A stretch of 64,000 bases of DNA from positions 76,198,001-76,262,000 of the forward strand of contig OX597828.1 of NCBI GenBank assembly GCA_951406725.2, given 5' to 3'. This DNA comes from Octopus vulgaris (lineage: Eukaryota). The notes under the pieces are model-generated. The model did not search any database. It was not told the origin of the DNA and was given only the letters and a program-made list of their open reading frames with translations. Both the position numbers and the translations under genes were made by a program. Position 1 is the first letter of the stretch. Every line of letters begins with the position of its first letter. This document shows positions 4,681 to 46,241 of this stretch, piece by piece.

Positions 4681-6307
4681 ATTATCAGAAAAATAAAAAG
4701 AACAAGCCAAAAAATTAACAAACTAAAATACTGCCAACAGCAACACACACATTCGACGGCTATCGCACTGCTTGAGTCCAAAAAATATAACCTCCAGCAA
4801 TGCATGAAGTCCCTAATCAATAACCAAAGATCAGCTGAGGAGAAGTGGGCCATTGAAAAAATCAAACTCAACCCCAAAGTGTTCTTTTCATTTGCGAGGA
4901 AACACAGGGTCACTGTCTCCATTGTTGGCCCTCTAATTGATGAAAATGGCACTCTCCAAGATAATGCCAAATCCATGGCCGAAATACTGCAGAAACAATA
5001 CTGCTCTGTTTTCAGCAATCCTGATATGGCCGATCTGGGCTATATCAGTGATGTCAACCCCCAACACACTATATCGGACATAACGTTTGGTGCCCCTGAT
5101 GTCTTAGCGGCGGTAAACGAAATAAAACACAATTCAGCAGTAGGCCCCGATAGGTTCCCTGCTTGTGTCCTGAAGGTGTGTCGACACCAACTTGCATCTC
5201 CCCTTGCTAATCTGTGGAGAAACTCACTGGATGCTGGCTATATTCCTAAAAACTTTCTGTCCCAGTCTGTTGTCCCAGTTTTCAAAAAGGGAAACAAGTC
5301 CCTTGCAGTGAACTACCGTCCGATCTCACTCACCTCTCATATCATCAAGGTATTTGAGAGGGTGGTGAGATCTCAAATAACCCAATTTCTGGAAAGCAAC
5401 AGACAGCTGATCTCTAACCAACATGGGTTCCGTAATGGAAGGGACTACCTAACGCAGCTCCTGCATCACTTTGATGACATTTTGAGAGCTTTGGGAGAGG
5501 GCTCCAACACCGATGTCATCTACCTTGATTTCAGCAAGGCCTTCGACAGGGTTGATCACAAGATCCTATTGAAAAAACTATCCAACATTGGTGTCTGGAA
5601 AGTTACTGAAATGGATTAAGTGTTTCCTGACAGACAGATCTCAACATGTTGTAGTTGAAGGGGTAAAATCAAGCCCAGACAAAGTTAGTAGTGGCGTTCC
5701 GCAAGGCACTGTGCTGGGCCCACTTCTTTTCATCATCTACATTAATGACATTAATGACATCATCAAGCACAGCAACATAAAATGATTCCAAGCTCCAGAA
5801 GGTCATAAATGAGGCGAGTGACCGGACATGCCTTCAGTCAGATCTACTGGCTGTTATCCAATGGGCAGAAAAAAACAATATGCTGCTGAACGCGGATAAA
5901 TTCGAGTTAATCCACTTTGGAAAAGAGGATGCCCTGAAACTCCCATACTTCCTTCCTTCAGGTGAAACTCTCGAGGCATCCAACAACATCAGCGACTTGG
6001 GAGTAGTTGTGGACAACAACATAAGCTGGGCCACTCATATAAACACCAAAGTTGACATGGCCCGCAGAATGTGTTCCAGGATTCTCAGAACTTTCCAGTC
6101 GAGAGATATCCACACCATTATCCTTCTCTTCTCCACTTTTGCCCGACCCCACATTGAATACTGTTGTCCACTGTGGTCTCCCCACACAAAACAAAGTATC
6201 ATAAAAGTTGAAGCACCTCAAAGGGCAATCACAAAAAGATAGATGGCATGACAGGCCTCGACTATTGGGGTCGACTAGAAAAGCTAAAACTTTATTCTCT
6301 ACAACGT
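4681..6307 (+). mobile_element. CR1/L2-group LINE ORF2 reverse transcriptase fragment, frameshifted and truncated at both ends
   Basis: Motifs GPDRFP, NYRPISLTSHIIKVFE, QHGFR, YLDFSKAFDRVDH, SGVPQGTVLGPLLFIIYIND, DLGVVVD, RPHIEYCCPLWSP across ORFs 4630-5619, 5588-5785, 5880-6242; YADD region deleted near 5785. Confidence 0.92.
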
Positions 6308-12935: not shown

Positions 12936-15100
12936 TCAACGAGGAGTTTGCATATTAAGTTGTGTTTGGAATTTTTCAATAAAGAGATTCTCCTTGTTAA
13001 TTCTCTCCTGTGTGGTGATCCCGTCTTTACATTGGTAGAAGGGGAATATATAGAATTTGGGGTTTAAGTCTTTAGCACATGAGTCTAAGTGGTCACTCAG
13101 TGGAATTTGTCGGTATTCCGGGAGATTTATTTGTTCTTTATGCACCGTTACTCGTTTACGTAACGGGAGACTCGTTTGTCCAACATAATTATGTTGGCAA
13201 CCAGCGCATGTGAGAACGTAGATAAGGTTCTCGGAGGAACAGGAGAAGTTAGTCTTGATTTTAAACTTCGTACCTTGTTTGAAGGTAAATTCAGAGCCTT
13301 CAAGTAGAAAGGGGCAGGTACCACAGTTTGAGCGTGCACATTTTTTTACTGTTGGGGGTGGATGTGGTGTGTGAAGTTTGGCATTTGTCAAGAGTTTTTT
13401 TAAAGATTTGTGTTGCCTTTTGCATTTGAGGATTTTGTGTGTATTTATAATGTTTTTCATTTTTGGGTCTGTTGACAGTAGACTGAGGTTTTGTATGATT
13501 GTGGTGTATGCTTCGATATTTTTGGGGTTGTGGGTGGAAATGTATGGAAGTATTTTGAGGTTGTGTGTGGTGTTAGGTTGTGTGGTTATCAGTGTAGTGT
13601 TGTCTAGTTCTTTGGCGCGTTTTATTCCATACTCTATAAGGGTGGAGGGATATTGACGTTGTAATAGTGTTTTTTTGAGGTCTTGAAGGCGTATTTCTCG
13701 TGTTTTCGGATCCGAGACAATGGTGCATACCCTTTTAGCTGAATTGAAAGGGATATTTGTCTTGGTGTGTTTTGGGTGGCATGAACTAAAGAGGAGGTAT
13801 TGTTGTGAGTCTGTAGGTTTGTGGTAGATGTCTGTTATGATTTGGTTCTCAGGTGTTTTTATAATTAGGAGATCAAGGAATGGGAGATGATGTTTGCTTA
13901 ATTCCATAGTGAATTGGATGTTGGGATGTATGTTGTTTAGTATGGTTTTGAATTCCAGGAGTTTTTCATAAGGTTCTTTCCATATGATGAAACAATCATC
14001 TAAATACCTTTTCCAGTTTTCCATTAGGTAGGTGTGGAAAACATGTCCAAATTTCTGGCTTGATATTTCATAGAGTGACAGTTCGAAGTAACCCATTATG
14101 AGGTTCGCAAGGACTGGTGCAGCCTTGGTACCCATCGCAATGCCACATTTTTGACGGTAGTGTGTGTCGTCGAAGAGAAAAAATTGTTTGTCAGAATGAA
14201 CTTAAGAGATTCTGTAATAAAAGACTTGTTAATGCGGTCAGGGAATGTCTCTGGGTGTTTTTCTAGCCAGAAGTCAATTGCCTCTATACCATACTCATGT
14301 GGAATGTTGGTGTAGAGGTTGATGACATCAAAGGATACCAGGAGTGCCTCCTCGTTAACTGTTTTCGGGAGGTGTTTGAGCATGTCCAGATCATCCCTAA
14401 TGAAACTTTTGATGTGGGTAAGGAAAGGTTTCAAAAGGATGTCTAGGAAGTTACTCAGGCGGTGTGTTTCACAGGAGGTACCAGCCACGATGGGCCTTAG
14501 TTTTAGGTCCTCCGGTGCTTTGATGTTGATGTGGATGTCAGTGGAGAGTTTGCAGGCTTCGGTGATGTATTTGTTTTTATGGATTTTAGGAAGGCCATAA
14601 AAAAGGCTGGGCTTGCATTTGAAAATGGTGATATAATCCCTTTCTTTTTCTGTGAGTCCCTGACCGTGTTGGCGTATGAGTGTGGTGAGGTTTCTGATTG
14701 TTTTTTGCTGTTTGTAGTTGTTAATAACCTCATAGAAAATGTTATTGTTAAGCATGGAGAACACTAGGTGTTTATAAAATTCCGTGTCCATAAGGACCAC
14801 AGCACTCCCTTTGTCCGCTTCTTTGATGGTGAGGTTTTTATCCAGTTGTATGTCACGTAGGTTTTTCCATTCTTCCTTACTGAAATTGGATTTTACCTTG
14901 GTTTTGCTTGGGGTAAAGGGGAGACTCTGGATGTGTTTACAGAAATCGTCCAGTGTTTTATTTCTCCTTTTGGTGGTAGGAAGTTGCTTTTATTTCTGAT
15001 CAATGAGTCGTCCCCATTGTTGATATCTGTCAAAGCTTCTGTTAGGCGAAGTTTTCTGCAGAATTCAGAAACGTCATCCTTGACCTCCGGGGGGTCACCT
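12936..15100 (-). mobile_element. Penelope-like element (Neptune-type): RT + Cys-rich linker + GIY-YIG endonuclease, 5' truncated, frameshift near 14170
   Basis: ADKGSAVV, LRPIV, SFDVINLYTNIP, AMGTKAAP, WKRYLDDCF, LPFLDL, YHKPTD, CARSNCGTC, NLIYVLTC..YVGQT in ORFs 14096-14800 and 12936-14135. Confidence 0.93.
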
Positions 15101-17770: not shown

Positions 17771-17913
<143 letters not shown>

Positions 17914-18019
17914 CCCTCCTTCCCTCCTTCCCTTCTTTCCTGAGCGTCAATAATACTTTAATTGTTCCACGTCCTGCGTTGCTGGGTTTTTTTTTTTTGC
18001 TGTGTTTTCTTGTTTGGAT

Positions 18020-18059
<40 letters not shown>

Positions 18060-18202
18060 CCTATAAAATTCAGCTAAACGTGATATGAGGGTGACGTGAA
18101 TCATAATTGTGCAATGAATCAAGGCTGATATGGGGATAAACACCAACTGTAACGATACTCACACACACACACACACACACACAGACACACACACACATAT
18201 AT

Positions 18203-22700: not shown

Positions 22701-23740
22701 GCATGAAAACCCGTGCCAAAACTGCGGCCTTAGATATTCTGAATAATAAATGGCAAGAAAAACCTCTCTATGGCAAATACCCAAAGAGAGCGAATAATGC
22801 AGATATCGACAAAGCCCTGACCCATCAATGGCTAATGGCCTCTGGCTTAAAATCTGAAACAGAGGGGTTTATCATAGCAGCTCAAGATCAATGCCTACCA
22901 ACAAGAAACTACCAGGCCAACATATTAAAGATCAGAAGCAGTCCAACGTGTCGTGTATGCAAGCAACAAAATGAAACCATTGACCATGTGGTCTCCAAGT
23001 GCAGTCTTCTAGCGCCTACAGAGTATCTCAACAGGCACGATAGAGCTGCACAATATATTCACTGGGTAATCTGTAAAAACCTGGATTTGCCCCATGAAAA
23101 AAACTGGTGGGAACACAAACCACCCCAGTGCTTGAAAATGACCACATCTCACTCCTCTGGAACTTCACCATTCAAACTGACAGGAAGATAGATGCAAATA
23201 GGCCAGACATCATATTGAAAAACTTCAAACAAAGATCATGCCTCCTCATTGATATGACTGTCCCAATCGATATAAACGTATCTGTCAAGACCTACCAAAA
23301 ACTGAGCAAATATAAAGATCTTGAAATAGAAATCAGCAAAATGTGGAAGCTGAAGACTAAAACAATACCTGTTGTCATAGGTGCCCTGGGAATGATAGCA
23401 AAAGGGGCTGATAGCTACCTAACTCAGATACCAGGAAACCCAAAAATGGCAGAAGTTCAAAAGATAGTGCTCATGGGAACTGCTCATATCCTACGCAAAA
23501 TACTCTCTATGTAATCTCAAGGTTTAAAACAAATATAATTTTCGGTTTAAAAAAAAAAAAAAAAAAAAAAACCTTTTTTTTTTTCTTTTTAGACATTCAT
23601 TAGTACAACATCCCCACCCCCCAAATATATGGCACACTAGGCATAACAACAACATGAACTTCCAACCCTGTTGTCTCTTGAGGTCTCTGGGTGAGACTTG
23701 GAGCCAACTTGTACAAATATAAAGCAAAAGTCAAACATAG
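19779..23740 (+). mobile_element. R4/Dong-clade non-LTR retrotransposon (RT + CCHC + restriction-like endonuclease) inserted in (TAA)n, near full length
   Basis: KWKSPGKDKI, NYRPITCL, EQKGC, IDYKKAFDS, GIFQGDSLSPLLF, YMDDLK, CRVC..ETIDHVVSKC, RHD, RPDI..IDMTVP, KLSKYKDL; ~225-bp 3' UTR ending AGTCAAACATAG then (AAT)n. Confidence 0.95.
19791..23514 (+). CDS. Dong/R4 ORF split into three frames (19791-22496, 22481-23191, 23107-23514) by two single-base deletions
   Basis: Domain order is contiguous; breaks at AGAAAAGAGGAGGCC (expected RKEGGRGL) and CCACCCCAG (CCACCCCCAG in the copy at ~51835). Confidence 0.85.
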
Positions 23741-44900: not shown

Positions 44901-45152
44901 AAATGGTTCAGTTTAGAAAGTGGTGAAAGAAAAACGTACAAATATTGACAACAAGCAGTCGTTATCTAAATGAGGAGCTAACGTGAAGCCCCTTGAAGGG
45001 CATGCCATAATTTAGGGGAATTTGGGATACTGTTTGCAATAACTATCTAGGTCATTTGTTATCAACCTTCGTTATCAAATTTTTAAAACCTATAAACCCT
45101 TATTTACATTATTTACATTCAACGGATATTTGCCCTCATCTTGTTTGTTGTT

Positions 45153-45198
45153 AACACAACGTTTCGGCTGATATACCCTCCGGCCTTCATCGGGTGTC
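45153..45198 (-). ncRNA. Minimal type I hammerhead ribozyme motif (U4C variant)
   Basis: GACAC-CCGAUGA-A-GGCCG(GAGGGUAUAU)CAGCC-GAAACGUU-GUGUU. Confidence 0.65.
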
Positions 45199-45245
45199 TT
45201 AGGGAAATTTCGAACCTGGGTTCTCATTCCTAAGGTATTTTTCGA

Positions 45246-45294
<49 letters not shown>

Positions 45295-45367
45295 GTTGTT
45301 GTTGTTGTTGTTGTTGTTGTACTAACTCCAAGTTTCGAATTCGATTCCAAGCAGTGACCTGAACATA

Positions 45368-45447
<80 letters not shown>

Positions 45448-45514
45448 TGATAATAATAATAATAACATCGAAAAATACCTTAGGAATGAGAACCCAGGTT
45501 CGAAATTTCCCTAA

Positions 45515-45560
45515 GACACCTGATGAAGGCTGGAGGGTATATCAGCTGAAGCGTTGTGTC
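45515..45560 (+). ncRNA. Minimal type I hammerhead ribozyme motif (GAAG variant)
   Basis: GACAC-CUGAUGA-A-GGCUG(GAGGGUAUAU)CAGCU-GAAGCGUU-GUGUC. Confidence 0.65.
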
Positions 45561-46241
45561 AACAACAAACAAGATGAGGACAAATATCCGTCGAATCTAA
45601 ATAATGAAATTAATGTAAATAATGTACAGAATTCCTCATCTTTTAAATATAGAACTCTATAAAGCCTTCTAAATCATATTTTCCTCGGCTGGACTATCAT
45701 AACCATTCGTATTTAAAACATCCAATCGTATTTTTATAATTAAATATCATGATAAATTTTATTTTAAAAATTGTTAAAATATTATGTGTACTATTGTAAA
45801 AGTATAAGTTATTTATTTCACGTAATTTTAACAACAAAACATTATATGGTCCCCTAGGGGTCATGTAGACCCCGGGTTTATATGACGATTGAGGGTCATA
45901 TAATATTTAGCCAGTGATCTATATTAAACAGTGTATTGTTGTTTAGCTGCTCGTAATTCTTCACTGGAAGCCCTATGGTCATGGCTATTCCCATTGTGAC
46001 CATCCCGTTATTCTAGAACTATATAGAATGTTATTGTCTAACGTGAAACATCTTTATATATAATAGTAGAGTGGGATTTGAGAGAATGTGGTTGTTATTT
46101 CTAGCAGACCTAGCAACTATGAAGAGGCTCGCATACTGGATCGTAATGGTTAGTCTAAGATCATAATGGAGATCCAGAATGAAACGCCTTTAGACTCTGC
46201 GTGTGTATGTGTTTGCGTGTGTGTGTATATATATGTATGTA

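Follow-up and report, generated by a model that had tools for sequence, protein, structure and literature searches.

To our knowledge, protein-coding retrotransposons use Pol II (or Pol I read-through), and the Pol III promoters known to us belong only to non-coding parasites, namely SINEs and Cassandra-type TRIMs. Pol III terminators are runs of four or more T's. Among Penelope-like elements (PLEs), the Poseidon protein nicks both strands and primes reverse transcription at two internal sites in the ORF start, which define the tail; insertion in vitro does not require cleavage by the hammerhead, which overlaps the ORF start (PMC11167929). Pairs of opposite-strand hammerheads 100-700 bp apart have already been listed as truncated PLEs, and a re-ligated circle has been proposed for PLEs (PMC4209133). 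For the TRIMp3 elements an origin by SINE insertion has been proposed, and a single transcript runs from repeat to repeat (PMC10886601).

The window analysed here is a stretch of 64,000 nt from Octopus vulgaris. A first-pass annotation had placed at 45100..45657 a short non-coding element that combined a Pol III-like remnant, an (AAT)n linker and a minimal hammerhead ribozyme in inverted-arm form, and had read it as a SINE/retrozyme hybrid. The near-palindrome is real: two inverted arms of 219 nt (45100-45318 and 45395-45613) are 91% complementary, and outside the microsatellite the arm-to-arm alignment covers 153 nt at 93.5%. The insertion stands as well, although the target duplication moves its bounds to 45102-45656 (Table 1). 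As proposed, the hammerhead is of the Penelope type and the insertion bears PLE marks. Each arm has the described layout, with stem I (GACAC/GUGUY), a C(U/C)GAUGA core, one extra A, a stem II of 5 bp (6 when G-U is counted) and GAA(A/G)CGUU. One lesion per arm had been listed, and both are present; C11.1U in the right arm had been overlooked. Both arms fail the core test for minimal type I hammerheads.

Table 1. Parts of the insertion at the window locus (positions within the window)
Feature	Position	Strand	Basis
Target-site duplication, left copy, 12 bp, one mismatch	45090-45101	+	22 of 39 inverted pairings in the family have such a duplication (score >=9) vs 35 of 1482 mismatched flank pairs
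Left arm: short-ended pLTR tail (start of the PLE ORF, ATG at 45227), stopping at the first family 3' end zone	45102-45250	-	
Left minimal type I hammerhead, U4C core lesion at 45192	45153-45198	-	
Left linker, reading (AAC)n(AAT)n in minus-strand sense; end of the left arm, which has no head	45248-45319	-	Sequence
3' half of the tRNA-derived head, from anticodon-loop remnant to 3' acceptor side; B box 45339-45348	45320-45361	+	Full head of other copies matches host-tRNA models
(AAT)n linker, head to ATG	45362-45465	+	Sequence; almost every copy of the family has the linker
Right arm: long-ended pLTR tail, PLE ORF codons 1 to 57, ATG at 45486	45463-45656	+	
Right minimal type I hammerhead, A15.1G at 45551 and C11.1U at 45547; predicted cut after 45555	45515-45560	+	
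PLE 'tail' extension, about 40 nt, one arm only	45614-45656	+	Bimodal 3' ends; one short and one long end in 33 of 39 inverted pairings
Target-site duplication, right copy	45657-45668	+	

The head remnant between the arms retains the B-box sequence TTCGATTCC at 45340-45348, with the preceding G changed to A (45339), and lacks the A box. The right cDNA would have halted midway through the head, and the left one inside the linker. This locus is almost certainly a single 5'-truncated, head-to-head insertion of a PLE pLTR, ordinary-looking and inert, the latter predicted because the A box is absent and the B box and the hammerhead cores are damaged. Ribozyme processing, which the first pass had envisaged, is unlikely at this locus, since neither core is intact and the arms lie in inverted orientation; read-through RNA would therefore fold as one long hairpin that buries the hammerhead. 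ADAR-type editing of the arms was considered and rejected, the base changes being mixed and without signature. Elsewhere in the window, an identical 66-nt stretch at 22829 and 51540 (+) is part of another repeat.

A search of the 2.8-Gb genome returned at least 2699 first-look candidates for the family tail. Exact 20-mers were counted 6611 times for the hammerhead, 4372 times for the head and 1078 times for the ORF end. Scaling the first two counts by the exact-match rates in ORF-bearing copies (5/29 and 6/29) suggests arm totals of roughly 38,000 for the hammerhead and 21,000 for the head, which are rough figures. The copies are about 5% diverged at non-CpG sites, and the family is therefore old in its host genome. 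At one locus (L009) the end of an ORF was found upstream of the head. Among 30 loci found with this ORF end, the head came next in 29 and the tail in 28. Among 30 loci found with the N-terminal part of the ORF, 9 had a direct-orientation 5' pLTR ahead of the ORF, and in 2 of those 9 it reached the head, starting at head positions 6 and 11. The unit accordingly reads head, (AAT)n, ATG, in-frame hammerhead, RT/GIY-YIG ORF, stop, 25 nt, and head again. The majority ORF comprises 838 codons (2514 nt) and opens at an ATG 29 nt before stem I of the hammerhead.

A natural piece of this ORF matches RVT_1 (E 5.8e-8), and GIY-YIG clusters match its C-terminal piece at a score of 0.97 (Pfam share 18-27%); Pfam GIY-YIG gave no match on two natural ORF pieces. 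All but two of 69 homologues of the protein contain PF26215, and most contain RVT_1. The majority protein is 57% identical to P0005 over 830 aa, and the N-terminus of P0005 likewise translates through a hammerhead-like codon run, with matching residues over the hammerhead. P0005 and P0006 are the nearest full-length homologues, and their source contigs (2758 and 2728 nt) are about one unit long; sister families of the P0001-P0006 type are 51-68% identical. In a quick tree that contained no named reference PLE, the family lies apart from a linker-cysteine PLE of the same genome; by its motifs it may belong to the Poseidon clade. No relatives were found among viral contigs. A second PLE family, at window 13173-14905 (-), is very young, with copies 99-100% identical and at least 1359 first-look candidates. 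It has frames of up to 764 aa, several inverted pairs and extra cysteines before the endonuclease; no tRNA boxes were found within 500 nt past its stop, and it served as a headless control.

The 3' ends of family copies are bimodal, falling at tail positions 143-160 and 193-201, two zones about 40 nt apart. The 39 inverted pairings, in 37 loci, mostly join one end of each kind (Table 1), and target duplications in the family measure about 9-14 bp. The tail includes a 9-nt repeat (window 45598-45625) of copy-variable number, which preserves the frame and lies at the first 3' end zone. The family thus has the features examined for EN+ PLEs: an ORF with RT and C-terminal GIY-YIG, a direct pLTR-ORF-pLTR arrangement, and inverted truncated copies with a tail. 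Since the head follows the ORF end in nearly every such locus and the hammerhead lies within the reading frame, the parts seen at the window locus are the pLTR of a high-copy, protein-coding Penelope/Poseidon element and not a separate small element. The non-coding label does not hold, because the tail is an open frame from the ATG of the right arm and the hammerhead belongs to the PLE ORF. The autonomous PLE with the same 3' repeat, for which the first pass had proposed to look, is this element. That annotation had also named a plain PLE terminal repeat as the outcome that would overturn it; a terminal repeat it is, but hardly a plain one, as it opens with a tRNA head.

The spacer sequence likened at first pass to a tRNA T-loop/B box is what is left of a tRNA-derived head that in other family copies is complete, has both an A and a B box, and stands upstream of the (AAT)n. 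Structure models built from 16 host tRNA genes match the head in 15 of 17 loci over its full length (73 positions; best 28 bits, E 2.5e-7), and sequence-only models from 16 host tRNA genes in 19 of 23. When the majority sequence of 32 full heads was aligned to 30 host tRNAs of six kinds, the tRNA-Arg genes came out best (z about 7). Its tRNA fold is interrupted by broken pairs in three stems (acceptor, anticodon and T). At E<=10, neither a hammerhead nor a tRNA family of Rfam matched the window region, L007, L107 or L248, and ARAGORN found no tRNA in the head majority with its threshold lowered to 70%; other ARAGORN matches at that threshold were rejected as noise. Because the models match despite broken pairs while Rfam and ARAGORN are silent, the head is, judged by its sequence, not a working tRNA but a degenerate one of the SINE kind, in which A and B boxes are present. 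The boxes were recognized by the A and B box consensus and head copies were counted by pattern matching; a stricter A/B pattern misses the family head, and the relaxed version detects it together with 3 chance places in the window.

Within the copies, the boxes (A 6.4%, B 2.4%) are not clearly better kept than the sequence between (4.2%) or after (7.9%) them. This is as expected under neutral decay and lends the Pol III model no support. Short and ORF-linked head arms (79 and 35, respectively) are equally diverged, have variants in common and show no diagnostic positions, so a separate SINE lineage is not shown. The family has the 5' tRNA-related head with A and B boxes of a tRNA-derived SINE, but is not a non-autonomous family sharing only its tail with a partner. 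We looked for a stand-alone SINE with the same head and another tail among 29 independent position-sampled heads and found none; heads lacking the tail are explained by truncation or by other insertions that interrupt the linker. The linker often contains 3' ends of other retroelements (L018, L019, L022, L028, L029, L038, L103 and L126), presumably Dong/R4-like by their motifs, and is therefore a landing site that separates head from tail.

Across the 116 family arms that span the hammerhead motif, the majority core is intact, as had been deduced from the two window arms; individually, 35 arms are intact. The majority has CUGANGA, one extra nucleotide, a stem II with G10.1-C11.1, GAAA, a palindromic stem III and a stem I (residue numbering after PMC4209133). 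A minimal-hammerhead descriptor gave 42 matches in 785 kb (loci plus window), 40 of them from the window-locus family, with none in the window copy itself and 0 in a block-shuffled control. Of 9 motifs from different families, 7 keep their stems paired although the stem sequences vary; the script did not resolve the other 2. Position N7, the sole free core position, is more polymorphic in the family (67 T, 18 A) than the positions around it, perhaps because master copies were under selection. Other families of minimal hammerheads, short, T-rich and mostly in (TA)n, occur at window 17912-18065, near 2913 in L037, near 2895 in L040 and in L271-L300. The pattern used for them has 2788 genome matches, some of which are the window-locus family, vs 17 for its reversed control. 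At 23 such loci of the genome no ORF was found within 1.5 kb, and an A/B pair upstream was absent from all 23.

Since the repeat opens with tRNA-derived sequence and the unit has no runs of four T's, the element is likely read by Pol III, and we lean towards the view that in this coding PLE with its T-run-free body the pLTR head acts as an internal Pol III promoter for the template RNA. The most serious competitor, though an unlikely one in our judgement, is an ordinary Pol II PLE carrying a passenger. In that case a master copy received a tRNA-SINE head just past its stop, the head became fixed in the pLTR, the start of the RNA or the edge of the pLTR fell there by coincidence, and TTTT is absent by chance in a T-poor strand. 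The lack of any stand-alone SINE with this head among the 29 position-sampled heads argues against such a passenger, whereas the location of PLE promoters in the pLTR (PMC2377424) is in keeping with it.

The 5' ends of copies bear on both readings. For 58 insertions not selected for the ORF, the 5' limit lies at head positions -3 to 10 in 38, at 11 to 26 in 19 and upstream in 1; the ungapped method used for this boundary mistook ORF-linked copies that carry indels (L118, L016) for head starts. In the 29 independent heads (30 loci taken in genome order by the head 20-mer), one copy extends into the ORF and one about 18 nt beyond the head, and the exact 20-mer count falls from its head to its ORF-end value over 71 nt. 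Of the ORF-selected copies, 14-17 of 29 continue 400-500 nt further into the ORF. The boundary coincides with the 5' edge of the tRNA, the expected start of a type 2 promoter, which the passenger reading must put down to coincidence. In its favour, another hammerhead family in this genome, which is headless, has tight 5' ends too (14 of 15 copies within 7-25 nt of an anchor), and a sharp 5' start is therefore not specific to Pol III. A small palindrome is present at the 5' edge of the head and might promote joining at that point. Among long copies L179 is exceptional, with 62 nt of the ORF end fused directly to the 5' pLTR tail without a head. At L020:1926-3198 a long ORF arm stands head-to-head with a short arm that begins at head position 10.

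Neither the majority ORF (21.8% T) nor the remaining unit contains a single TTTT. Protein-preserving, codon-aware nulls predict 5.0 in the ORF (P 0.0035) or, with the strict shuffle, 2.9 (P 0.029). The rate of T4 across 61 natural fragments (75 kb) is 0.41 per kb, that of C4 2.54, and no T4 site is found in more than three copies. The pooled controls from the same genome, four LINE families (1.7-5.3 TTTT per kb) and one headless PLE, contain 34 TTTT in 9132 nt, a mean of 3.7 per kb; one of the five control RT clusters (L203, a 93-nt frame) was left out. The headless PLE, young and of similar base make-up, has 9 TTTT in 2292 nt. Against the pooled controls 9.4 would be expected in the ORF, and the absence has P 0.014 against the lowest-rate control and P 0.0013 against the headless PLE, which speaks against chance under the passenger reading. 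On the other side, GGGG is absent from the ORF too (nulls 2.7, P 0.047, and 1.05, P 0.29), although it is rare in the controls as well (0-1.1 per kb), and under the strict shuffle the TTTT absence reaches no more than P 0.029.

Among metagenome relatives, 16 of 19 scored PLE loci have 2.5-13.9 TTTT per kb (5 of 24 loci, with short matches, were omitted from this scoring). The low three are L248, L250 and L251. L250 and L251 represent one family, whose sequence ends before the 3' end and has no TTTT, a point against the Pol III reading, though only about 2 are expected. L248, a tandem PLE on a metagenome contig, has an A/B-box-like motif and an AAT run between the stop and an in-frame hammerhead, at 2829-2894 and 5620-5685, and 2 TTTT per unit vs 5.3 expected. 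The motif has a shuffle rate of 0.001, was found in 1 of 11 segments, and was not detected by host-tRNA models, Rfam or ARAGORN. L248 is more distant in the tree than L247, a closer relative of the family which is headless, as the passenger reading would have it; from its sequence L248 may be an independent second tRNA-headed PLE. Other tRNA-like matches in metagenome loci, at L262:141-191 and L266:194-250 and 618-668, lie 100-125 nt upstream of truncated PLE fragments and are probably neighbouring SINEs.

Three unstranded raw RNA runs from a related organism show equal mate directions and a 2.5-3.8-fold step-up at the head. A DNA-type run shows the same step (3.3-fold), and the step in RNA coverage therefore reflects copy number and not the polymerase. 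These unstranded short reads have no start or end peaks on the element and show no cleavage ends, which reads of this type would hardly be expected to reveal.

Less probable again is a division of labour in which Pol III makes only short pLTR RNAs, with solo copies as SINE-like masters, and Pol II supplies the mRNA and the template of long copies. Such a division would sidestep the translation of uncapped RNA and suits the large excess of short over ORF-linked copies (upstream element sequence stands at 1-2 of the 29 position-sampled heads), but it leaves unexplained the ORF-wide absence of TTTT and the long copies that start in the head (2 of the 2 reaching it), and no private variants mark the short copies. 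The independent non-coding hybrid of the first pass, borrowing only the PLE 3' end and processed into circles by its ribozyme, is very improbable in spite of the full tRNA head, the Pol III-compatible body and the thousands of short copies, since the autonomous element has the identical head and linker, the hammerhead is coding, sampled loci contain no head-to-tail arrays of the short unit (copies are solo or inverted, and dispersed), and copies end 50-110 nt beyond the predicted cut and not at it.

In the Pol III reading that we prefer, transcription would initiate near head position 1-2 and, without a terminator, continue past the ORF to the second pLTR. A cDNA begun in the first pLTR (or on solo-pLTR RNA) would hit the RNA 5' end at 300-400 nt and give a short SINE-like copy, one begun in the second pLTR would give an ORF-bearing copy, and two cDNAs joined by their 3' ends would give inverted arms. 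The weakest step is the source of protein. The only ATG before the conserved N-terminus precedes the predicted cut, the next Met being residue 104, downstream of a conserved motif at 84; the message must therefore be uncut (here uncapped) RNA, RNA cut by the hammerhead and re-ligated into a circle, or Pol II read-through mRNA. Two published points run counter to Pol III: the only mapped PLE promoter known to us is LINE-like, internal and TATA-less (PMC2377424), and the processivity of Pol III has been argued to bar autonomous elements (PMC10886601).

More tentatively, it is possible that the whole autonomous retrotransposon has switched to Pol III. A terminator-free 2.7-kb RNA driven by the captured tRNA head would then be both template and message, cap-free translation would be made possible by the (AAT)n leader together with the hammerhead in the reading frame (cut, then re-ligated circle), and the element would shed tens of thousands of SINE-like copies of its first repeat. 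If this is true, an element that codes for protein yet has a tRNA head and an ORF free of T runs breaks the division between Pol II and Pol III elements and shows the birth of a SINE inside its own partner. Its protein would also have to be made independently of a cap, and the PLE hammerhead may thereby gain a role that can be tested. Annotation will list this single element under two names, 'SINE' and 'Penelope'.

The hammerhead, the inverted arms and the unequal ends are PLE traits already in print. What we did not find in the published literature searched is a PLE whose pLTR opens with a full-length tRNA-derived head; Repbase and Dfam lay outside that search and may list the family. The family resembles Poseidon of Anolis carolinensis (PMC11167929) and Penelope of D. 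virilis (PMC2377424) in its single ORF with RT and C-terminal GIY-YIG and in the pLTR-ORF-pLTR order. It also shares the hammerhead overlapping the ORF start and the tail of 30-40 nt that results from two internal RT start sites (PMC11167929), and, with PLEs in general, inverted 5'-truncated copies with a tail (PMC8557442). It differs from both in the tRNA-derived head and (AAT)n linker that open its pLTR, in a unit without TTTT, and in an ATG ahead of stem I, theirs being inside the hammerhead; the promoter mapped in D. virilis Penelope itself is LINE-like, with an intron (PMC2377424). The ribozyme does not differ from the minimal type I hammerheads of metazoan PLEs as described in PMC4209133, which likewise have an extra nucleotide between 9 and 10.1, G10.1-C11.1, a palindromic 15.2-16.2 and a short stem I.

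A Pol III-type promoter followed by a type I hammerhead within one repeat is also found in SM-alpha and Sj-alpha of Schistosoma. These are non-coding and often tandem, and their hammerhead frees monomers (PMC6765202), whereas the present repeat belongs to a coding element and is dispersed and inverted. The non-LTR retrozymes of animals are similar in that short hammerhead repeats are tied to PLE pLTRs, but they are headless, non-coding tandem repeats with a hammerhead per unit (PMC7229834; bioRxiv 10.64898/2026.07.22.740005). In the octopus family the motif is coding, and the dispersed solo or inverted short copies are solo pLTRs identical to the autonomous element's own. The capture in a terminal repeat of a promoter of small-RNA origin, a likely Pol III promoter here, is shared with the TRIMp3 elements Cassandra, Helenus and Ajax. 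Those are non-autonomous LTR elements of 0.3-1.3 kb, whose autonomous partners are argued to depend on Pol II (PMC10886601), while here the carrier of the tRNA-derived head is a 2.7-kb coding PLE.
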